Below are positions 1,762-60,951 of a stretch of 64,000 nucleotides of DNA, in pieces. Numbering within the stretch: the stretch's first letter is position 1; each line of letters begins with the position of its first letter. Origin of the DNA: Candidatus Nomurabacteria bacterium (GTDB taxonomy: Bacteria; Patescibacteriota; Minisyncoccia; Phycocordibacterales; UBA9973); contig CAWHSF010000003.1 of NCBI GenBank assembly GCA_963832025.1, positions 15,665 to 79,664 of the forward strand, given 5' to 3'. Position numbers and translations under genes: made by a program. The notes under the pieces are model-generated. The model saw only the letters and a list, made by a program, of their open reading frames with translations, was not told where the DNA came from and did not search any database.

Positions 1762-2394
1762 ATGAGCGAGCTCACCATCGGAATAGTTATCATTATAATC
1801 AGCGCACTCGGATATTTTAGCAACTGGCTGAATTGGCGGTTTTTGAATTACAAAATAAATCATCTATTTTATTATTTCGGGGCTTTCATTCACGAAAGTT
1901 CACACGCGCTCATCGCTCTCGCCACCGGCGCAAAAGTTCATAAATACAAAGTCTTTGCAATGCAACCGCAAGTCACCTATTCAAATTCTAAAATACCAAT
2001 ATTGGGAAATTTATTTATTTCGATTGCGCCGATATTGGGTGGATTAACTTTTTTATTTTTTCTAAATAAATACTTTCTTGCCAATCAGTTTATTATGCCT
2101 CATTTTTCAAATTGGAAATTTTTCTTCACTGATTTTCTTAAATTCTTTAAACAAATCAACATCACGAAATGGAAAGATTGGGTGGCGATTTTTCTATTCT
2201 TAAATATGGGCGCCATGATTGGCCCTTCCCCACAGGATTTGAAAAATGTCTGGATTTTAATATTTATTTTGGCCTTTATCCCTTCAGAATTGATTAATCA
2301 TTTAGGAATTTTAGCTGTCACATTTATTCTAATCAATATTATTTTGCAGATTATCTTGATGGCTATTGTTTATGTTGCAAAATTAATTTGGTAG
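1762..2394 (+). CDS. polytopic membrane protein with HExxH motif (putative zinc metalloprotease)
   Basis: Several hydrophobic helices and an HESSH motif located at a helix end. Confidence 0.4.
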   Translation: MSELTIGIVIIIISALGYFSNWLNWRFLNYKINHLFYYFGAFIHESSHALIALATGAKVHKYKVFAMQPQVTYSNSKIPILGNLFISIAPILGGLTFLFFLNKYFLANQFIMPHFSNWKFFFTDFLKFFKQINITKWKDWVAIFLFLNMGAMIGPSPQDLKNVWILIFILAFIPSELINHLGILAVTFILINIILQIILMAIVYVAKLIW

Positions 2395-3492
2395 ATTTTT
2401 TGCAAAATGAAAAATCACAATTTCACTGTCACTCCCTACTCGGAGTGGCGGACCCCAGGTTCCCACTCCGCTCGAAGTATAGACAATCATTTTGTCCCAC
2501 ATTTTGAGGCCATAATCATAGCCCTTGAAAATTAGTTTAGTGAAAACATTTAGCGGAAAAACTTGAGCCTTGTGCGTATGCCCTGAAATTTGCAAAGAAA
2601 TACCGGCTCTCCACGCATCCGCCAATTGAGCCGGCTGATGCTTTAAAAGAATTGAAGGTTTATTTTTATCTATATTAAATTTTTCTAAAATAGTCTTGAA
2701 TTTATCGGCATTAGTAGAGTCACGGTCATCCACTCCAATCAACTGCAACCCGTCTATCATCACCATTTCGTTGTAGAGAATATGAATTCCTGTTTTTTTG
2801 ATTGCATCTAAAAAAATTTTGTCCTTTCTATATTCTTCATGATTCCCTGTTACAAAATAAACGCCGAGTACCGGATGTAAATTTGCAAAAGGTTTAATAA
2901 TTTCAAATTCATCAACTTTTACTGTATCATAAAGATCTCCTCCGATAAAAATTATGTCCGGATTGATTTTATTTATTTTATCGGCAATTTTTTTGGCAAA
3001 GTTTTCGCCGTTCACGGCACCTAGGTGTACATCGCTAATAAATACCGCCCTCTTAGTAAACCACTCTGTCGGTAAATTTGGCAATATTACAGTAATATTT
3101 TTTATTAAAATTTTACGTGCATGAAATATGCCATAAAAGCTGGCGATAATGGCTAAAATTATAAATAAAATACCTAAATCTTTTATGAAGATATAATAAG
3201 TAATTGGTAAAATTGAAACTGCTAAAATATAAAAACAGGAAACCAAAAATAAATAGAAAGCTATGCCTAGCCACACAGCTGATATTCTGTAATAAATCCT
3301 GGTAAATAAATTATTAAACTTGAAAGACATAGTTACGGCTGCCACAAAACTGAAACAAAGAACGATTAGAATGATTCCCGAAACCAACTGTGCAGTTGTA
3401 GAGAAAGAAAAAAGAGAAATAATTGCTTGGTAAATAACAAAATGCATCAAAGCGAGAAAAATTGAAATTATTGCAATGAAAATTATTATCAT
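2383..3492 (-). CDS. membrane-anchored metallophosphoesterase
   Basis: N-terminal TM helices followed by the calcineurin-like motifs ISDVHLG, GGDLYD, GNHE and GHTH. Confidence 0.75.
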   Translation of the reverse strand: MIIIFIAIISIFLALMHFVIYQAIISLFSFSTTAQLVSGIILIVLCFSFVAAVTMSFKFNNLFTRIYYRISAVWLGIAFYLFLVSCFYILAVSILPITYYIFIKDLGILFIILAIIASFYGIFHARKILIKNITVILPNLPTEWFTKRAVFISDVHLGAVNGENFAKKIADKINKINPDIIFIGGDLYDTVKVDEFEIIKPFANLHPVLGVYFVTGNHEEYRKDKIFLDAIKKTGIHILYNEMVMIDGLQLIGVDDRDSTNADKFKTILEKFNIDKNKPSILLKHQPAQLADAWRAGISLQISGHTHKAQVFPLNVFTKLIFKGYDYGLKMWDKMIVYTSSGVGTWGPPLRVGSDSEIVIFHFAKNLPN

Positions 3493-3494
3493 AT

Positions 3495-4631
3495 TTAGTT
3501 TGATAAATACGTGGCGATATTCGCTTCTTGCTCTGCATAAGTAACCGCGCAGTGAATAATGTGATTCTTGTCATGTAAATAATACAAACAATCAGTCGTA
3601 GTCGGATTAAGCACCGCTTCAATCGCATCGATACTCGGCTCACAGATTGGATGTGGCGGTAAACCGGTATGTTCATATGTATTAAACGGAGAATCAATGC
3701 TTTTATCTGCCACCGTAATTGGCGCCCACCATCCACTACCGGTATTACCACGAGCATATTGAAGTGTGGAATCGGCATCGAGCTCCATTCCTTGGTCCAA
3801 ACGATTCCAAAGAATTCCGGCAACCAGTGGCATGTCGGTAGAATTCGCAGCTTCACGTTGCACGATAGATGCTAGGGTCAAAGCCGAGGTCCACTTAATA
3901 TCTTTGGCTGTAAATTGTGGTAAATATGGTGCAAAATTTTCATTAAATTGATCGATCAACCTCGTGGTGACATCCACTGGTGTTTCCCCCACCGGAATCA
4001 GATAAGTATCCGGAGCATAGACACCTTCAATATTTTCCGGTTTAGTGGTTGTGTCTTTGGTGATCCACTCGGTCGTTTGTTTTTTTGTCCAACCCAGCGC
4101 CGGTGCAAGTAAGGCAGCAATTTCTTCCTTGCGAAGTCCGGGAGGAATCACCACCCATTTCATATATGGCTTAGCAGACAAAACTTGTAATAATTGTGAA
4201 GGAGTCCAACCAGTGGAAATTTTATATGCGCCCGGAGCAATTGTTGCTTGCCCTGAGTGCGTCGAAGGGTTTGTGCCGATTAAATTTGTAAATGCTGTGG
4301 CATCAGTGATATATCCCCCGCTCAACAAATTATTTGCAATATCAGTCGAGGCATCGGTGAGCGAAACGACAAATTGATCGGTGCCTACCGGCGGAGGTGG
4401 AGGAGGCAGAGCTGTCTTTGTTGCAGAATTACCACCCCCTTCCCCTCCTTGATTAAGGAGGGATGCCGGAGGCGGGGTGGTTGAGCTAATTGGAATAACC
4501 AGCTTTGTCACCACGGGTGCTTGTGTTTCTGTAACTTTTGGTTTATTAAAATGAGCAACCAGAAAATATAATGCAGAAATAATAATGATGGCTGAAACAA
4601 TTATGATTTTGTGTTGTTTAAAATAATCCAT
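3495..4631 (-). CDS. mltG: endolytic murein transglycosylase MltG (YceG-like)
   Basis: N-terminal TM helix, a linker, then YceG-type motifs (ASIVQREA, GILWNRL, NTYEHTGLPPHPICEPS). Confidence 0.8.
   Translation of the reverse strand: MDYFKQHKIIIVSAIIIISALYFLVAHFNKPKVTETQAPVVTKLVIPISSTTPPPASLLNQGGEGGGNSATKTALPPPPPPVGTDQFVVSLTDASTDIANNLLSGGYITDATAFTNLIGTNPSTHSGQATIAPGAYKISTGWTPSQLLQVLSAKPYMKWVVIPPGLRKEEIAALLAPALGWTKKQTTEWITKDTTTKPENIEGVYAPDTYLIPVGETPVDVTTRLIDQFNENFAPYLPQFTAKDIKWTSALTLASIVQREAANSTDMPLVAGILWNRLDQGMELDADSTLQYARGNTGSGWWAPITVADKSIDSPFNTYEHTGLPPHPICEPSIDAIEAVLNPTTTDCLYYLHDKNHIIHCAVTYAEQEANIATYLSN
4431..4475. repeat. GC-rich palindromic mini-element inside the mltG coding sequence
   Basis: A C-run followed by the perfect 8-bp stem CCCTCCTT/AAGGAGGG (4443..4462). 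It is translated as ASLLNQGGEGGGN. The architecture matches the element at 22700..22750. Confidence 0.55.
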
Positions 4632-4633
4632 GA

Positions 4634-5659
4634 TTACATATTTATCAATTCATTAATATCAATTCCTTTTTTATAAATTATCAAATTATCTTTGGAATTT
4701 TTCCAAGTCTGCTGAACCGCATCCAAGATTCTCCAAGTTTCTAAAATCTCGCCGCTACCAATGAATAAATCATGATTCCCTTCGAGCACAGCTCGAATAA
4801 CTCGCCCGTAGGCATCGGGTTCGTGCTCAATACTGAAAACTTTTTTACTGCCATCTTTATATTTAATTCTTATCTCCGTAAATTTTTCGGAAAAAGCTTT
4901 GCCGGTAGAAAGAACCATCGGTACTCCACGCCAGAGCGGATCTCCTGAAGTTATATTAACCGACACGAAAGTTTCTGTCATGCTTTCCTCATTCCCCACT
5001 TCCTTGCGATATCCTTCATACTGACCTCTTTTTACACATTCGTGTTTTTCTATATTGCAAACTATTTGGAGATTCTTTAAAGCATCATAGCGACGAACCT
5101 CGTCAAATGACTTGGAAAGCACCACAGAAAGCATTTCTAGAAGATGGCTTTGAAGAAAATCTTTTAAGGCTCCGGTCTGTTCGTAAAAATTAACCCGGCC
5201 TTCTATGTCTATTTTTTCGCTGGCAATAATTTCTATCTTCGCAATTCCTTTTTGTTCCCAATCTTCGGTGACCACTCTCTGCATAGATTGTTTTACCAGA
5301 TAATGGTCAATGCGATAAATTTGGTCTTCGGAAAAATATTTATCAATATACTCAATCAAACTTCCGGCGGATTCTAGATCTTTTCCAAAAGGTTTTTCCA
5401 GCATTATTTTTACTTTTTCCCTGCCAAAATTATCACTAATTATTTTGACAACGTCCGACACAGCATCTGAAGGAATCGCCAAATGGAAAATTTTCTCTGC
5501 GTCTTTATCAATCAAATTCTTTAAATTTCCATAATCTTTTCGGGAAAGAGGCACCACCATGCCCGGAAAATACATTTTTTCGAGTGCAGGAAATAAATAG
5601 CGTTTTGCTAAATCGCCCGAAGCACCAAAAATTGCAAAGGTTGTGGTATTATTTTTCAT
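4634..5659 (-). CDS. zwf: glucose-6-phosphate dehydrogenase family protein (short form)
   Basis: Motifs FGASGDLAKRYLFPAL, EKPFG and YRIDHYLVKQ. It lies upstream of gnd and pgl. Confidence 0.7.
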   Translation of the reverse strand: MKNNTTTFAIFGASGDLAKRYLFPALEKMYFPGMVVPLSRKDYGNLKNLIDKDAEKIFHLAIPSDAVSDVVKIISDNFGREKVKIMLEKPFGKDLESAGSLIEYIDKYFSEDQIYRIDHYLVKQSMQRVVTEDWEQKGIAKIEIIASEKIDIEGRVNFYEQTGALKDFLQSHLLEMLSVVLSKSFDEVRRYDALKNLQIVCNIEKHECVKRGQYEGYRKEVGNEESMTETFVSVNITSGDPLWRGVPMVLSTGKAFSEKFTEIRIKYKDGSKKVFSIEHEPDAYGRVIRAVLEGNHDLFIGSGEILETWRILDAVQQTWKNSKDNLIIYKKGIDINELINM

Positions 5660-16080: not shown

Positions 16081-16305
16081 CTAGCTTTTTTCTCTCGTCA
16101 ATTTTTTAATTTTCGCCTCAACTTTGGATGCCAAAGACCTGTTTTTGAATTTCTTAGAATAAACAACTTTCACTGGCCAACGCGAAGAAGTGTATCTAGC
16201 GCCCAATTTACCACCATTGTGCTCCTTCACCCTACGTTTTAAATCAGTAGTAATGCCAGTATATAAGGTTTTATCAGCACATCGGAGAATGTAAACACAA
16301 TACAT
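16081..16305 (-). CDS. GIY-YIG nuclease-family protein (UPF0213-like)
   Basis: Motifs YCVYILRC...LYTGITTDLKRRVKEHN. Size 74 aa. Confidence 0.75.
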   Translation of the reverse strand: MYCVYILRCADKTLYTGITTDLKRRVKEHNGGKLGARYTSSRWPVKVVYSKKFKNRSLASKVEAKIKKLTREKS

Positions 16306-16371: not shown

Positions 16372-16442
16372 TGGGAGATCGTCTAATGGTAGGACATATC
16401 CCTCTGGAGGATATTATCTTGGTTCGAGTCCAAGTCTCCCAG
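16372..16442 (+). tRNA. tRNA-Gln (anticodon CTG)
   Basis: Hand-folded cloverleaf: acceptor TGGGAGA/TCTCCCA (U1:A72), D arm GTCT/GGAC, anticodon stem TATCC/GGATA with loop CTCTGGA, T arm CTTGG-TTCGAGT-CCAAG, discriminator G. No CCA is encoded. Confidence 0.85.
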
Positions 16443-16465
16443 CAGATTCGTGTTACACTAATACA

Positions 16466-20013: not shown

Positions 20014-21012
20014 TTATTTATTTAAATATTTTCTCACCGCCAAGAAACTGGAAATAACTCCCAATAGTATACCCGATACCAAAAGAATTGCAAAAATTTG
20101 GAAAAAGCTCGAAAGGTAATAACTATACATATTGATTCCGAGAAAACTGGTCATGGTGCGTCCGAGCCAGACACTCGCCGGCCAAAAAAGAAGCATGGTT
20201 ATGAGAGTCGCCACCACGCCATAAATGGCCCCTTCAATCATAAACGGTCCACGAATGTGCATTTTGGAAGCGCCGACTAGACCCATCACGCCGATTTCTT
20301 CTTTGGAAATAAAAATAGTCAAACGAATCGTGTTAAAAGTGACAATAATAGAAATAATAACTAAAAGTAAAGTAAGCAGAAAGCCCAGCTTTTGTCCTCC
20401 ATCAATAATGGCGTTGAGTCTGTCTATCACTAATTTATTTTGATTGTAGTCCACTTTGTCTATGATGGATGTTGAACCCAAAGAAAGCGCATTATCGGAC
20501 TGCAAGAAATTCGCAATGTCTCCATACTGAGAAGTGTCTTTGGCTTTTACGTCTAAATAAGCGCCCAAAGGATTTGTCCCGATTTCATCTAAAGCTTGAA
20601 TCGTCGGATAGTCACTCTGATGACGGTCGCGGAAAAGTTGAAGTGCGTCGTCTGCACTGGTATAAGAGACAGAAGCCACTTCAGGTAATTGTTCCAAGGA
20701 AGATTTTAAAGATAGAATCTGATCTTCCGGCGCGCCCACTGTGAAATATATCGTCACATCCACTTTGTTTTCAATTTGAGCGAGAGAAAAATGTAAAACT
20801 GCTTGAAAAAAAATAATAAGAGTGATGACCACGAGGGTAATGGTCATCACCAAAATTGCCGCCCAAGAAACAACCCCACCTCTTTTAAAGTTTATAAATC
20901 CGCCCTTTATAATTCTTCTTAATCTCGTCATTGCCATGGGTTTTATTATATCACCCCGTAGTAGATTTTGGCGAAGCCTTTTGGGCGCACTTTGCGCATC
21001 GCCAAAATTCAC
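20014..21012 (-). CDS. ftsX: cell-division permease-like protein FtsX
   Basis: Lies downstream of ftsE. It has an N-terminal TM helix, an extracellular domain and 3 C-terminal TM helices. The start may instead be the internal MAMTRLRR. Confidence 0.8.
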   Translation of the reverse strand: MNFGDAQSAPKRLRQNLLRGDIIKPMAMTRLRRIIKGGFINFKRGGVVSWAAILVMTITLVVITLIIFFQAVLHFSLAQIENKVDVTIYFTVGAPEDQILSLKSSLEQLPEVASVSYTSADDALQLFRDRHQSDYPTIQALDEIGTNPLGAYLDVKAKDTSQYGDIANFLQSDNALSLGSTSIIDKVDYNQNKLVIDRLNAIIDGGQKLGFLLTLLLVIISIIVTFNTIRLTIFISKEEIGVMGLVGASKMHIRGPFMIEGAIYGVVATLITMLLFWPASVWLGRTMTSFLGINMYSYYLSSFFQIFAILLVSGILLGVISSFLAVRKYLNK

Positions 21013-21021
21013 TACGGGGTA

Positions 21022-21696: not shown

Positions 21697-21810
21697 CCCA
21701 TTACGAAATAAACGCGGACGCAAAATGTGACACGCTTATTTTCATTATTGATAAAATTTTTCATTGTCATAATCATTTTTATTTCATGCGTCCGCGATTT
21801 CGTACGGGAT
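21695..21810. repeat. IR cassette copy A (116 bp with ~25-33 nt imperfect terminal inverted repeats)
   Basis: The left arm ATCCCATTACGAAATAAACGCGGACGCA pairs with the right arm TGCGTCCGCGATTTCGTACGGGAT. The core is AT-rich. An extra ATCCCGTAC at 21812..21820 makes a GTACGGGAT-T-ATCCCGTAC palindrome. Confidence 0.65.
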
Positions 21811-22071
21811 TATCCCGTACAGAACAGGAAACGCTTCAATCTTTGCTTCAGATAAAGCTTACCTCTACCAGATTTTAAATATAACTCGCGGTTTCTTGCG
21901 TCATTTTCATCCAGACACGCTTCGTAATATATTATTTCGAATGGACCTCGTCCTTTAGTATATTTAGACTCTCCATTACAATGTTCCTTGAAGCGTTTCC
22001 TGTAAGTCATTAGTATACCCTGTGTACAAATTACCACTTGTCTTACTTTTTAATACGTAAGTGTAAAACAT
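21810..22071 (-). pseudogene. GIY-YIG nuclease-family gene with a 1-nt frame break
   Basis: MFYTYVLKSKTSGNLYTGYTNDL (ATG 22071) is in one frame. RKRFKEHCNG...RELYLKSGRGK is in the track ORF 21810..22037. The break lies near 22000..22006. Confidence 0.6.
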
Positions 22072-23159: not shown

Positions 23160-23168
23160 AAGATTTTT

Positions 23169-23283
23169 CAAAAAGAGCAAAAGTAACTTTTAGAATGACT
23201 TGCGCAGCGCGACGGCGCGAGCAGGAACAAATTTTCAGCAGAAAATTATGTGTGCATTATAAAAGTTACTTTTGCTCTTTTTG
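23169..23283. repeat. 115-nt long-stem inverted repeat between the two tRNA-Thr genes
   Basis: Arms 23169..23197 and 23255..23283 are reverse complements (29 nt, 1 mismatch; CAAAAAGAGCAAAAGTAACTTTTA is perfect). The 57-nt core is more GC-rich. Confidence 0.7.
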
Positions 23284-23287
23284 CACA

Positions 23288-23363
23288 TGGAGCCGTTGAT
23301 CGGGATTGAACCGATGACCTCGATATTACCAATATCGTGCTCTACCAACTGAGCTACAACGGC
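23288..23363 (-). tRNA. tRNA-Thr (anticodon GGT), CCA encoded
   Basis: Hand fold: acceptor GCCGTTG/CAACGGC, anticodon stem CGATA/TATCG with loop TTGGTAA, T arm ATCGG-TTCAATC-CCGAT, followed by TCCA. Confidence 0.85.
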
Positions 23364-23380
23364 ATACTGAAAACTTTAAA

Positions 23381-23436
23381 ACCAACTGAGCCCCGCCCGA
23401 CTGAATGACTTCAGTCATTCGGGCAGGTACAACGGC
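23381..23436 (-). other. truncated 5' copy of tRNA-Thr(GGT) (nt 1-20) carrying a 36-nt GC-rich palindrome between nt 9 and 10
   Basis: tacaacggc (23428..23436) and accaactgagc (23381..23391) are identical to the adjacent tRNA. They are split by CCCGCCCGACTGAATGACTTCAGTCATTCGGGCAGG (23392..23427). Confidence 0.7.
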
Positions 23437-23509
23437 ATGCTGTTTATACTAGTGTATTTTTGTGTATTTTGCAAAAATATTTTATAATATATTTTACTAA
23501 GGAAAATAA

Positions 23510-23626
23510 ATCCCGTACGAAATCGCAAACGCAGAAAGTAAATAAAATTATGAAATCTATAAAAAATATTATAAATAATAAAAAGGAAAATTATGCATAA
23601 GCGTTCGCGTTTTATTTCGTACGGGA
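23510..23626. repeat. IR cassette copy B (117 bp)
   Basis: The left arm ATCCCGTACGAAATCGCAAACGCA pairs with the right arm GCGTTCGCGTTTTATTTCGTACGGGA. The AT-rich core is homologous to copy C. The right arm encodes MHKRSRFISYG of the next ORF. Confidence 0.65.
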
Positions 23627-25497
23627 CTCCAATCATAATTTTTGCTCTCATTTTCGCAATGGGATTCATCGGTGCGCCGAAGGCTTTTGCCGCGACTCAA
23701 GTAATCACCGCAACCGGCACGGGTTCATGGACAATCCCCGCAGGAGTGACTTCTGTTCAGGTAGAACTATGGGGTGGCGGAGGTGGAGCTGGAGAATATG
23801 GAGGCGGTTCAGGAGCGTATGTAAAAGAAACAGGACTATCTGTAACACCTGGGAATAGTATTACATACAATATAGCAACTGGTGGTGGACATGGGGCAGT
23901 AGGTTCTGCGGGTGCTGGCGGAACTGGCTATTATTCGGGCGGAACAGGAGGGGCTCATACTGGTTACGCTGGAGGAGGAGGTGGAGGAGGTTCTTCTTCC
24001 GTTGTTGTTAGCGGAACGACTTATATTGCATCTGGAGGAGGAGGTGGAGGACTAACTATTACTCTTGCTACCGCCGCTTCTGGTTCAAGTGGTGGTAATG
24101 GAGGTGGAGGAAATGGTATGGGTGTTGGTTGTGCTGGAGGTGGAGGAGGTTCGGGAACAGTAGGAGGAAATTCCGCTGGAGCTGCTGGCGGAACTGGCGG
24201 AACTGGCGGAACTAATCAAACAGGAACAAATGGATCCCCTACATCATATGGTGGTGGTTCATCGGCTGGAGGTAGTGGAAATGGAGCTGCTGGTGGTGCT
24301 AATAATGGAGGAAATGGGTCAGGCGGAGCGGCTGGAGGAACGAGTGGAACACCAAACGGCGCAAGTGGTTCTGGTTCCGATTCAGGCGGTGGAGGATATG
24401 GAGTCTCTTCAGGAACAGGAGGTAACGGAGGACAACCTGGAGCTGGGTCGGGAGGAGGTAGTATTGGTGGCACAGGTGGCGCAGGAGAACTTGTTATAAC
24501 TTATACTGCCAGTAGTAATGACACCGACAGCATGACCGGCACAACTTTTATTATCAAGGACCCAGTCATCGGCACGATGGGTGGCTATAATACTTCTACC
24601 AATTTTCAAATGGTTGATTCCGGTGACACTATTTTTACCAACGTAAATTCTTCCACAAATTTTATCGGGCATTTTGGATTTTTATATTACCCGCAAGTAA
24701 CGCTTGGCACTTTGACTGCCACTCCGGTAGGCATGCAGACAAATCTAAGTTGGCCAGCTTCCGTCGGATACGACGGATGGAATGTTTCGGGATATAACAC
24801 TGGTTGGTCTTCTACCTCCGGTGGTCCATACACATTTACTTCTGTTGGCAGTTCCACTAGTTATTCATATACCAGCCTAGCACCTGGGACATATTATTAT
24901 GTTGTACAAACTTTGGATGCTTTTGGTAATGTTATCGGCACATCCAACGAAGCTTCAGATACTATTTTACCAGTTATCACTTACAGTATTAATGCCAGCA
25001 CCAACAACTCTGGTTCTTCTTACACAGTTCCGCTTAACACCCTCACCACGGCTGCGGCATCGGGCTCGAACGAAAGCACAATTAATTCTATTTGGACAAA
25101 CATCAGCACAAATGCCGGAAGTGGAGTAGTTGTAACGGTGCAATCCGCAAATGGAGATTTAAAATCTACGTCTGTTCCGGGAAATACCATTCCGTCTGCT
25201 ACCGCAACCATGGCTGCCGGCACTGCCAATTACGGTATCTGTATTAAATCGGTCACGCAAACTAGTGGAGCAACTTTGACAAAAGGAGGTAGTTTCCCAA
25301 GTACCACTTGCACAACAACAGCAAATGGAAATACCGTTTCCGCGGTCACTACCAGCTCTCAAAGTCTCTTGACTGCAGGAGGATTAATTAATACTGGTGT
25401 CGGAGAAATTATGGTTGATGCGGAAAATAATAACGTCACTCCAGCACACACAGATTATTCGGATACTTTGACTTTCATTGCGACGAGTACATTTTAG
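23593..25497 (+). CDS. secreted surface protein: glycine-rich domain + FN3-like module + C-terminal WxL-like domain shared with the next two genes
   Basis: Signal peptide (..APKAFA/ATQ). Has TGSWTIPAGVTSVQVELWGGGGGAG ... GGAGELVITY, an FN3-like segment, and a last ~165 aa that closely match 25615.. and 26853.. (VTVQSANGDLKS, IPSATATMA, DTLTFIATSTF). Confidence 0.75.
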   Translation: MHKRSRFISYGTPIIIFALIFAMGFIGAPKAFAATQVITATGTGSWTIPAGVTSVQVELWGGGGGAGEYGGGSGAYVKETGLSVTPGNSITYNIATGGGHGAVGSAGAGGTGYYSGGTGGAHTGYAGGGGGGGSSSVVVSGTTYIASGGGGGGLTITLATAASGSSGGNGGGGNGMGVGCAGGGGGSGTVGGNSAGAAGGTGGTGGTNQTGTNGSPTSYGGGSSAGGSGNGAAGGANNGGNGSGGAAGGTSGTPNGASGSGSDSGGGGYGVSSGTGGNGGQPGAGSGGGSIGGTGGAGELVITYTASSNDTDSMTGTTFIIKDPVIGTMGGYNTSTNFQMVDSGDTIFTNVNSSTNFIGHFGFLYYPQVTLGTLTATPVGMQTNLSWPASVGYDGWNVSGYNTGWSSTSGGPYTFTSVGSSTSYSYTSLAPGTYYYVVQTLDAFGNVIGTSNEASDTILPVITYSINASTNNSGSSYTVPLNTLTTAAASGSNESTINSIWTNISTNAGSGVVVTVQSANGDLKSTSVPGNTIPSATATMAAGTANYGICIKSVTQTSGATLTKGGSFPSTTCTTTANGNTVSAVTTSSQSLLTAGGLINTGVGEIMVDAENNNVTPAHTDYSDTLTFIATSTF

Positions 25498-48671: not shown

Positions 48672-49580
48672 TTAAATCGCATTAACTGCTATACTTGAAT
48701 TATTTTTAAAATCTACATTTTTGGCATTGTGATTATTATAAAAACGCTTAGCTAATTCACTCACTTGCATCCATAGAAATGACCAGATCCAAACTAGAAT
48801 AATGTATTTAAAAGAAATTGCTGTAGTAAATATACCAAAAAATGCAATAAGGCTGGCAATAATTTGAGTTATGATAGTTGCCCAAATAACTTGTTTTGAT
48901 GGTAAGAATTTATACCAAGGTTTTTCAGTATGTGCAACATAAACCAGCATGTGTCCTGATACTGTAAGTTTTAAGAAAAATAATGTTTGGATAATAATCC
49001 ATGGTGCGTGAAAAACGGTAATAGCAATCCAAAGTAAAATCATACTATTACAAATACCAGTGAATCCAAAAAGCAGACTAAGGGCAAAACGCTTTCTTGG
49101 ATTCACACTAGCTGGAGCTTTGGCTAAAGTAACTCGGTCAAAAGCGAGAGAAATAATGGGAATATCATTCAAAAGAGCAATCAAAATAATTTGCACTGGC
49201 GTCAGAGGATAAGTGCCAAAAATCACACCAATAATAGCAATTGTCACAATTAATCTGAAACTTTCCGAGATTCGATAAAGCGAATAATTATACAACCGAG
49301 TAAAAACATTTCTTGCTTCTATAATTGCATCTTTGATCACAGCGATACCTGGCAGAGTTAAAACTATATCTGCTGTGCCCTTGAGCGCATCAACTGCATT
49401 TGCCACAGCGAAACCCACATTCGCTGCTTTGATTGGTGGCACATCATTTACACCGTCACCCGTAACCGCCACGACATATTTTTCTGGCAAAGATTGTGCC
49501 ATTTTCACTAAATCATATTTATCTTTCGGAAGAACTTCAGCAAAGCCAGCAAGTGAATTGAATTTTTCTTTTACTCCATC
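48672..49580 (-). pseudogene. P-type ATPase, C-terminal third only (5'-truncated)
   Basis: Contains GFAEVLPKDKYDLV, TGDGVNDVPPIKAANVGFAV and C-terminal TM helices. The frame runs without a start into the 3' end of the tRNA-Asp-like gene. Confidence 0.7.
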
Positions 49581-49653
49581 AACACCGACCGGATTTGAAC
49601 CGGCAACCTCCCGCGTGACAGGCGGGTGCTCTAACCAGTTGAGCTACGATCGC
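49581..49653 (-). tRNA. tRNA-Asp (anticodon GTC)-like with a non-complementary acceptor 3' strand
   Basis: The D, anticodon (CCCGC-CTGTCAC-GCGGG) and T arms fold normally. The 5' strand GCGATCG faces CGGTGTT instead of CGATCGC, and homology is lost at about nt 68 (49585). Confidence 0.55.
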
Positions 49654-49704
49654 ATATATTTGATTTACAAACCGACACCTTCTTATTGCTTTCGTTTCCG
49701 CCTT

Positions 49705-49773
49705 GGCGGGTGCTCTAACCAGTTGAGCCCGCCCGAGCGACTGAAGCCGTTCAGTCGGGCGGGCTACGATCGC
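49705..49773 (-). other. truncated 5' copy of tRNA-Asp (nt 1-31) carrying a 36-nt GC-rich palindrome at the nt 9/10 junction
   Basis: ggcgggtgctctaaccagttgag...ctacgatcgc is identical to the adjacent tRNA. It is interrupted by CCCGCCCGAGCGACTGAAGCCGTTCAGTCGGGCGGG (49728..49763). Confidence 0.7.
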
Positions 49774-50001: not shown

Positions 50002-50040
50002 ATATGTTAAAACTTATTTTATTATAGAAAACTACTTTTA

Positions 50041-50106
50041 GGCTCATAACCTTGGGTTATTCGCGCTATTAGTCTTTCTGGAGATGCCTCTTCTCTATCC
50101 CGCTAT
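50041..50106 (-). other. leader containing a 24-nt 5' copy of the CAT tRNA plus a 14-nt antisense match to its anticodon arm
   Basis: 50081..50104 repeats 49978..50001. The plus strand at 50041..50054 (ggctcataaccttg) is the reverse complement of 49960..49973. Confidence 0.65.
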
Positions 50107-60848: not shown

Positions 60849-60951
60849 AGAGATATAATAACACCCGGTAGTGAGTTTTGGCAACGCACAACGTGCGTAA
60901 ATTTTTTAAAATTTACATTGCCAAAATCTACTACCGGGAACATTAAAAATT

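Follow-up and report, generated by a model that had tools for sequence, protein, structure and literature searches.

tRNA-Thr, tRNA-Asp and tRNA-Met loci of the window

The window (the whole 64,000-nt stretch of DNA analysed here, from a Nomurabacteria/Paceibacterota-like genome of the CPR/Patescibacteria) carries, on its minus strand, an intact tRNA-Thr(GGT) gene that is preceded by a truncated 5' copy of itself, split by a 36-nt palindrome (designated E hereafter). A comparable arrangement, with a related palindrome, precedes tRNA-Asp. The features of these loci, together with those of a third remnant and of two genes for predicted stand-alone GIY-YIG nucleases in the same window, are as follows.

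23437-23474, minus strand: conserved upstream block (ttgcaaaata..caaaaatacactagtataaacagcat), putative tRNA-Thr promoter and leader, which now abuts the remnant instead of the gene
23428-23436, minus strand: tRNA-Thr(GGT) 5' remnant, nt 1-9 (GCCGTTGTA)
23392-23427, no strand assigned: 36-bp GC-clamp palindrome E (plus strand CCCGCCCGACTGAATGACTTCAGTCATTCGGGCAGG; in tRNA sense CCTGCCCGAATGACTGAAGTCATTCAGTCGGGCGGG), inserted at tRNA position 9/10
23381-23391, minus strand: tRNA-Thr(GGT) remnant, nt 10-20 (GCTCAGTTGGT)
23364-23380, minus strand: 17-nt spacer TTTAAAGTTTTCAGTAT, the last 6 nt of which copy the leader (cagtat versus cagcat)
23288-23363, minus strand: intact tRNA-Thr(GGT), called by ARAGORN and by Rfam (69.9 bits)
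49764-49773, minus strand: tRNA-Asp 5' remnant, nt 1-10 (GCGATCGTAG)
49728-49763, no strand assigned: second copy of E (in tRNA sense CCCGCCCGACTGAACGGCTTCAGTCGCTCGGGCGGG), in the opposite orientation to the Thr copy
49698-49727, minus strand: tRNA-Asp remnant nt 11-33 (CTCAACTGGTTAGAGCACCCGCC, 49727-49705), then a degenerate anticodon arm (CCCGCC-AAG-GCGG) that has lost its anticodon loop
49654-49697, minus strand: spacer of about 44 nt between the remnant and tRNA-Asp
49580-49653, minus strand: tRNA-Asp(GTC) with an aberrant 3' acceptor strand (nt 70-72 GTT instead of CGC)
50081-50104, minus strand: third 5' remnant, an exact copy of nt 1-24 of the tRNA-Met gene at 50001-49930, without E
50040-50054, plus strand: inverted copy of the anticodon arm (nt 28-42) of the same tRNA-Met, between the remnant and the gene
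16081-16305, minus strand: stand-alone GIY-YIG minigene (74 aa; Pfam PF01541, E=6.6e-17), divergently adjacent to tRNA-Gln (16372-16443)
21810-22071, minus strand: frameshifted GIY-YIG minigene between prfB and ftsE, downstream in the same orientation as the two tRNA-Thr genes

The initial annotation had described nt 1-9 and 10-20 of tRNA-Thr(GGT) recurring 17 nt upstream of the gene around a 36-nt palindrome, with an equivalent structure at tRNA-Asp, and this observation is confirmed. The GC-clamp pattern occurs only at these two places in the window, against 0 expected in 100 shuffles, and both palindromes fold as strong hairpins with two alternative inner helices (-16 to -23 kcal/mol, z-scores of -3.5 to -5.3). 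An independent Logan assembly of a public run (L114; loci retrieved for comparison are designated L with a number) is base-for-base identical through the Thr structure. Three points nevertheless need correction. First, the plus-strand Thr copy aligns with the minus-strand Asp copy, so that the two palindromes lie in opposite orientation relative to their tRNAs. Second, the Asp junction is at 10/11, or at 9/10 given a 1-nt G ambiguity. Third, the ‘intact’ tRNA-Asp is not fully intact: its 3' acceptor strand reads CGGTGTT, whereas 35 metagenomic relatives with an identical core have CGGTCGC or CGATCGC and a matching acceptor stem, ARAGORN rejects it, and Rfam (54.9 bits) shows two mismatched acceptor pairs. 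The tRNA-Met remnant had gone unnoticed, and with it three of the six tRNA genes in the window carry an upstream 5' remnant.

Empty sites in relatives

The loci of prfB, which abuts the tRNA-Thr pair and is itself of CPR affiliation, were retrieved from relatives with 83-87% protein identity. In three of them (L115, L118 and L119), the same upstream block is joined directly to an intact tRNA-Thr(GGT), with neither remnant nor hairpin, and the window thus carries a derived 73-nt insertion, with the original upstream block now preceding the remnant. Similarly, a further locus (L121) shows tRNA-Met followed by tRNA-Asp without a remnant. At its tRNA-Thr(CGT), by contrast, L115 has an analogous structure, in which an old-type 5' remnant interrupted by a different GC hairpin (CCCCGCCATGGCGGGG) is followed by a different, complete tRNA-Thr(CGT). 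Two other relatives, L116 and L117, illustrate what a classical integrase event looks like at this very tRNA-Thr locus, namely a tyrosine integrase plus the 3' half of the tRNA, and the window structure is not of that kind. At the Asp locus, orthologous remnants with a shortened anticodon arm (CCCGCC-TAG-GCGG) but no E occur in L138 and L143, and remnants with unrelated hairpins or none are also seen in L115, in L132, L133, L148 and L149, and at the window's own tRNA-Met; remnant formation therefore does not require E. The frameshifted GIY-YIG minigene between prfB and ftsE is likewise polymorphic, being present in the window and in L115 and absent in L116, L117 and L119.

A widespread hairpin in tRNA remnants and protein genes

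A scan of one genome per species with the E core (CCCGCCCGACTGAANNNNTTCAGT) returned 113 loci, where about one would be expected by chance (our estimate). They come from many CPR lineages and from Bacteroidota, Ignavibacteria and Chlorobi, including one cultured isolate (L093, Aestuariivivens), whereas only one viral contig carries E, which speaks against a phage origin. Variants show compensatory changes in both inner helices (C/T15 with G/A26; ACTGAA/TTCAGT changing to ACCGAA/TTCGGT). No Rfam family fits E, whether the whole window was searched at the gathering threshold or the element at E<=10. In some Bacteroidota MAGs, E is the core of multi-copy repeats with genome-specific flanks, whereas CPR genomes hold just 1-2 copies among the loci retrieved. 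The idea of CRISPR repeats was rejected: there are no arrays, and the only periodic case (L032, Bacteroidales) is a tandem of at least ten 327-nt units of E plus a GIY-YIG ORF.

About 26 of the genome loci, roughly half of the CPR ones, have E inside tRNA-like sequence at the boundaries of the D-stem strands, at positions 7/8, 9/10, 13/14 and, most often, 21/22, with one further copy in a T-loop. The E-bearing copies are truncated, often lack the anticodon loop, and sometimes carry two or three different GC hairpins (L031, L050, L075 and L109). Two arrangements recur: either a 5' remnant with E precedes an intact tRNA, as in the window, or an intact tRNA is followed by a 5'-truncated, often divergent copy carrying E. 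In at least 12 loci, E lies inside long ORFs and keeps the frame as a 12-codon insertion, mostly read as PARTTExVQSGG, and Pfam confirms that the hosts include conserved genes, namely MutM, RecG, HsdM, class II aminoacyl-tRNA synthetases, trigger factor, UbiD and a DAO oxidoreductase; this applies to the E family and not to the two window copies. No case was found in which E breaks a long ORF, and no target-site duplication (TSD) exceeds chance, except for genome-specific flanking repeats. In 21 of about 26 tRNA sites, the left flank in E orientation is GCTC or GAGC, which is, however, confounded by the target being the D-stem itself, and the flanks in protein genes are only weakly YTC.

The associated GIY-YIG minigene

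All-against-all clustering of 1573 ORFs within 1.5 kb of E revealed a single recurrent family, an ~80-aa protein present in 13 loci, which is a stand-alone GIY-YIG catalytic domain (PF01541; E=1e-13 to 1e-17 for the cassette ORFs and for both window ORFs). The arrangement is stereotyped: a tRNA 5' remnant with a hairpin, a short linker, ATG, the ORF, and then the intact tRNA, into which the ORF runs so that tRNA nt 2-7 encode its last two residues and U8-A9-G10 is its stop codon. This holds in L099, L072, L060, L022, L013, L059, L122 and L144. To remove the bias of having selected these loci by E, homologues of the L122 protein were searched, which gave 109 hits, with every hit named by a source to phylum level coming from Patescibacteria lineages, and four loci were then retrieved by this homology and the length of available sequence alone. 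All four (L157-L160) show the same architecture, for tRNA-Asp (twice), tRNA-Phe and tRNA-Ala, with a hairpin interior of 36, 36, 39 or 33 nt, but always with the CCCGCCCG...CGGGCGGG clamp.

Several individual loci link this architecture to the window. L157 is syntenic with the window's Asp locus (gatA, a 200-aa ORF, tRNA-Met twice, the cassette, then tRNA-Asp) and carries a complete GIY-YIG ORF where the window has only the spacer between remnant and tRNA-Asp. L122 has the very 36-mer of the window's Thr locus at position 9/10 of a tRNA-Asp remnant. L123 has a complete cassette followed directly by a second remnant, E, 16 nt and tRNA, which is exactly the ‘solo’ layout of the window. On the other hand, no GIY-YIG ORF lies between remnant and tRNA at either window locus, and the evidence for a deleted one is a single weak reading-frame resemblance: the 17-nt Thr spacer, read in frame with the tRNA's TAG(8-10), gives F-K-V-F-S-M-P-L-stop, whereas canonical cassette ORFs end ..RRF(L)K....stop on the same TAG. 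The spacer may thus be a relic of the 3' end of a lost ORF, but a direct ORF-less event cannot be excluded. Moreover, many E copies in Bacteroidota have no GIY-YIG gene within the 8 kb examined.

A candidate selfish cassette of tRNA genes

These features find their best explanation, somewhat more likely than not, in a selfish cassette family that colonises the 5' part of tRNA genes in CPR/Patescibacteria, of which the window's Thr and Asp loci look like derivatives. The complete cassette would read: tRNA upstream block and leader; a tRNA 5' remnant (nt 1 to about 20-43) whose D-arm is split by a GC-clamp hairpin, here of the 36-bp E type; a short linker; the ORF for the predicted nuclease; and an intact copy of the same tRNA. 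The window loci have the remnant, the hairpin and the downstream tRNA, but no ORF, either because the ORF was deleted or because hairpin-plus-duplication events also occur without it. E is also an insertion module in its own right, which inserts precisely, without target duplication, next to the GCTC/GAGC D-stem strands of tRNA-like DNA. What the analysis demonstrates is the anatomy of these loci, its recurrence, the empty sites, the association of E with GIY-YIG minigenes and tRNAs, and the in-frame insertions in protein genes; it shows the window structures to be recent insertions of a recurrent type, the hairpin to be an insertion module, and the hairpin, the tRNA remnant and the GIY-YIG minigene to form one conserved architecture. 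What remains inference from sequence is that the minigene product has nuclease activity at all and breaks tRNA-gene DNA, that recombinational repair against a cassette-bearing copy then copies the cassette or creates the partial 5' duplication, and that the remnant plus hairpin is transcribed from the tRNA promoter as a long 5' leader removed by RNase P. The leader is likewise inferred, since the conserved upstream block precedes the remnant, and the promoter role of that block is inferred too; the consensus scan did not call it. E itself is not followed by a U-tract and is not called as a terminator. MFE folding of the whole leader plus tRNA was ambiguous, because the remnant's acceptor strand competes with the gene's own, and was not relied upon.

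Why should the hairpin reside in the remnant at all? Perhaps it destroys a nuclease target, or interrupts the direct repeat that would otherwise delete the cassette, or perhaps it is itself the recognition structure of the nuclease. The first of these possibilities is complicated by the fact that the intact downstream tRNA keeps the same D-arm, so that simple target-disruption immunity does not explain self-protection. The putative nuclease, moreover, is only 74-82 aa long and consists of the catalytic domain alone, with no separate DNA-binding domain that could confer long-site specificity. It is conceivable, though on present evidence doubtful, that E and its GC-clamp relatives together with the ~80-aa protein form a new class of mobile DNA, a GIY-YIG counterpart of REP/RAYT, in which a nuclease with no DNA-binding domain would use a 33-39-bp cruciform or hairpin as its address, home into the D-arm of tRNA genes by break-induced duplication, borrow the tRNA's promoter and its U8-A9-G10 as a stop codon, and scatter the hairpin as 12-codon insertions into essential genes across CPR bacteria and the Bacteroidota/Chlorobi/Ignavibacteria group.

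The interpretation offered in the initial annotation is partly supported. Its core inference, a site-specific process involving a palindromic element at the D-arm and accompanied by duplication, is strongly supported, even though neither the GIY-YIG cassette, nor the occurrence of the hairpin in frame in protein genes, nor the damage to the downstream tRNA-Asp was visible to it. Its alternative of a deliberate tRNA-like leader is not supported as a designed function. The absence of further cases together with absence in relatives had been set beforehand as grounds for random debris, and only half of this was found: the structure is absent in relatives, but other cases are abundant, which indicates a recent insertion rather than debris.

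Should the cassette model be correct, the tRNA loci of CPR bacteria, whose streamlined genomes usually hold one gene per tRNA, are being remodelled by a very small selfish cassette that leaves 5' remnants, replaces tRNA genes with foreign copies (as in L115) and may damage them (as in the window's tRNA-Asp). Such structures will confuse tRNA annotation and completeness estimates in metagenome-assembled genomes. The 36-bp hairpin would be among the smallest insertion modules known to persist inside essential proteins, and the ORF-tRNA fusion, with its stop codon inside the mature tRNA, couples translation of the predicted nuclease to pre-tRNA processing. Literature searches for GIY-YIG genes in connection with tRNA, palindromes, REP elements, CPR bacteria or Patescibacteria found no description of minigenes fused to tRNA genes with remnant and hairpin, nor of this 36-bp element. 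One study notes GIY-YIG domain genes among predicted transfers from Patescibacteria to other bacteria (PMC12455944), which is compatible with the cross-phylum spread of E.

Alternative explanations

The most serious alternative, less likely than the cassette model but possible, is that E is a non-autonomous REP/MITE/PATE-like palindromic element moved in trans by some other enzyme, for example an IS200/IS605-type or RAYT-type Y1 transposase acting on single-stranded DNA next to GCTC/GAGC. The tRNA remnants would then arise independently, by tandem duplication or tRNA gene replacement, and merely serve as safe havens where D-arm-seeking hairpins survive, whereas the GIY-YIG genes would be co-residents of the same tRNA hot spots and not the motor. 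This view would fit the precise insertion without TSD, as seen with IS200/IS605-type elements, the GCTC/GAGC flanks, the multi-copy Bacteroidota families without nearby GIY-YIG genes, the remnants without E or with other hairpins, and the remnants with two or three different hairpins, as expected for safe havens. However, no transposase-like family recurs within 1.5 kb of E, although a trans-acting enzyme elsewhere in the genome cannot be excluded, and the presence of a GC-clamp hairpin just upstream of the ORF in 4 of 4 loci sampled by GIY-YIG homology alone is too tight a coupling for co-residence. In addition, E and the ORF are amplified together in L032. A MITE in the strict sense is not indicated either, as the whole element is one palindrome, without terminal inverted repeats plus TSD.

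It is unlikely that the remnant plus hairpin is a selected tRNA-like 5' leader that would, for example, stabilise or regulate the pre-tRNA transcript or act as a decoy for a tRNA-binding factor. Its position between the upstream block and the tRNA makes transcription very probable (by inference), E is not terminator-like, and the Asp remnant with a shortened anticodon arm is shared with L138 and L143. On the other hand, the structure is absent from the closest relatives at the Thr locus and from most tRNA-Asp loci; the extent of the remnant and the type, position and orientation of the hairpin all vary between loci; the remnant is truncated with a destroyed anticodon loop; the same hairpin occurs inside protein genes; and no Rfam family matches.

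Random debris or an assembly or sequencing-adapter artefact, suggested only by the truncation of the remnants and the mere two E copies in 64 kb, is effectively refuted by the identical independent assembly, the absence of chance matches, the compensatory variation in the inner stems, the in-frame copies in conserved genes, the occurrence in a cultured isolate and the recurrence of the same architecture in dozens of genomes from many studies, including the identical 36-mer at the same tRNA position. An intron-like intervening sequence, which the precise and structured insertion and the rRNA gene insertions for which CPR bacteria are known (PMC11270868) might suggest, is refuted for these loci, because no intact tRNA was found by ARAGORN across any of about 120 E sites after exact in silico excision, the E-bearing copies are truncated or lack an anticodon loop, no group I or BHB signature was found in Rfam, and E inside ORFs is always in an open frame with a strong bias to one reading, so it is translated rather than spliced.

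Comparison with known systems

The best experimental precedent is the free-standing GIY-YIG homing endonuclease SegB of T4/T6-like phages, which is encoded among tRNA genes, cleaves inside tRNA genes, shows a statistically significant association with tRNAs, and drives recombination-dependent segmental duplication of tRNA-containing segments, an amplification that collapses again without selection (PMC13096335). The tandem amplification of the E+ORF unit in L032 is comparable, and the presence/absence polymorphism at otherwise conserved loci (L115, L118, L119 and L121, and the prfB-ftsE minigene) is as expected of a homing cassette. SegB, however, resides in phage genomes and has a C-terminal part whose truncation abolishes toxicity, whereas the proteins described here comprise only the catalytic domain and lie on CPR chromosomes. 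Their fusion to the tRNA so that its TAG(8-10) is the stop codon, and the accompanying 5' remnant and GC-clamp hairpin, are not reported for SegB in the parts of that study consulted.

Rickettsia palindromic elements (RPEs) are likewise reported to be short palindromic selfish DNA that survives as in-frame insertions in conserved protein-coding genes and in RNA genes (Ogata et al. 2000), but they are about 100-150 bp long and confined to Rickettsia, whereas E is 36 bp, spans CPR and the FCB group, and is coupled to a GIY-YIG gene and to tRNA D-arms, so that the resemblance is an analogy only. REP elements with RAYT transposases (REPtrons) and IS200/IS605-derived palindrome-associated elements also involve a short imperfect palindrome with a bulge that inserts without target duplication, multi-copy families in some genomes, and a small dedicated gene next to copies of the palindrome. 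Yet their defining Y1/HUH transposase is not found within 1.5 kb of E, where the neighbour is instead a predicted GIY-YIG hydrolytic nuclease, and E is not extragenic only.

Integrase-mediated islands in tRNA genes similarly leave a partial tRNA duplication next to an intact tRNA gene at a recombination hot spot, as seen in L116 and L117. Classical att duplications, however, involve the 3' part, lie kilobases apart and come with a tyrosine integrase, whereas here it is the 5' part that is duplicated, at a distance of 17-80 nt or one minigene (17-50 nt at the window loci), with no recombinase among the neighbouring ORFs, and a search of the window for a displaced 3' end of tRNA-Asp (a putative attR) found none. 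The closest solved relatives of the cassette protein by sequence are the UPF0213 stand-alone GIY-YIG proteins of the same single-domain size (PDB 1YWL EF2693, E=3e-5; 1ZG2 BH0048, E=3e-4), structural-genomics entries with no assigned function in their names, for which no link to tRNA genes or hairpins was found in our searches and for which a hairpin or tRNA-gene substrate gives a concrete hypothesis. Taken together, the structure combines a free-standing GIY-YIG homing cassette with an RPE/REP-like palindromic insertion element; it has a real chance of being a class of its own if the nuclease proves to mobilise the hairpin.

Additional tRNA remnants and associated structures

Further features of the window are:

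50040-50104, minus strand: third 5' tRNA remnant, upstream of tRNA-Met (50001-49930)
49580-49653, minus strand: tRNA-Asp(GTC) with an altered 3' acceptor strand
23160-23290, minus strand: structured spacer between tRNA-Thr(GGT) and tRNA-Thr(CGT)
21810-22071, minus strand: frameshifted GIY-YIG minigene between prfB and ftsE
21712-21815 and 23514-23627: two copies, in opposite orientation, of an inverted-repeat element
20953-21020 and 60864-60938: copies of another palindrome family

The remnant associated with tRNA-Met is an exact copy of nt 1-24 of that gene, and it is followed by 24 nt, an inverted copy of the anticodon arm (nt 28-42) and about 38 nt before the gene itself begins; by contrast with the remnants split by the 36-nt hairpin E, it contains no GC hairpin. 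Among metagenome relatives, tRNA-Asp in L132, L133, L148 and L149, and in L133 and L148 also tRNA-Thr, possess 5' remnants (nt 1-12) that are interrupted by an AT-rich hairpin (GTTTTGG..CCAAAAC) instead of E, and unrelated hairpin families therefore occupy the same niche. The tRNA-Asp(GTC) gene of the window carries GTT instead of CGC at nt 70-72, giving G1-U72, C2xU71 and G3xG70; it is not called by ARAGORN, whereas 35 relatives have a perfect stem. The spacer of roughly 115 nt that separates the two tRNA-Thr genes folds into a long stem (about 29 bp) enclosing two hairpins, is conserved in the relatives L115 and L116, and shows compensatory changes in 11 of 47 predicted pairs. It has no Rfam match and is a candidate structured RNA or palindromic element co-transcribed with the tRNAs.

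Two other families of inverted repeats were found in the window. The first, an element of roughly 100 nt (cccgtacgaaatcgc..gcg..tttatttcgtacggg), has one copy upstream of ftsE, which is also present in L115, and another that spans the start of the 634-aa ORF. The second (ACCCCGTAGTAGATTTTGGCGAAGC ... GCATCGCCAAAATTCACTACGGGGT) has arms of 21-25 nt, with its first copy placed at the ftsX/ftsE junction, and a similar motif (aaaatttactacgggg) flanks E in the locus L069.

GIY-YIG minigenes and related loci

The GIY-YIG minigene inserted between prfB and ftsE carries a 1-nt frameshift near codon 24; the insertion is shared with L115 but is absent in the relatives L116, L117 and L119, where prfB and ftsE lie about 15 nt apart. 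In related loci in which a GIY-YIG ORF of ~80 aa precedes a tRNA gene (L122, L157-L160, L060, L072, L022, L013, L059, L099 and L144), this ORF has no stop codon of its own, but reads through tRNA nt 1-7 and stops at the near-universal U8-A9-G10. RNase P cleavage at +1 would therefore leave a non-stop mRNA.

In L116 (1604-2551) and L117 (683-1630), a tyrosine integrase lies next to the 3' half of tRNA-Thr(GGT), which represents a classical integrative element at the same tRNA locus in a relative, so that the locus is a general hot spot. A different arrangement is seen in L032, a locus from a Bacteroidales MAG, where positions 2000-5000 hold a tandem array of at least ten 327-nt units, each made of E plus a 108-aa GIY-YIG ORF that terminates at the TGA inside the next E, an organization that is reminiscent of nuclease-driven segmental amplification.
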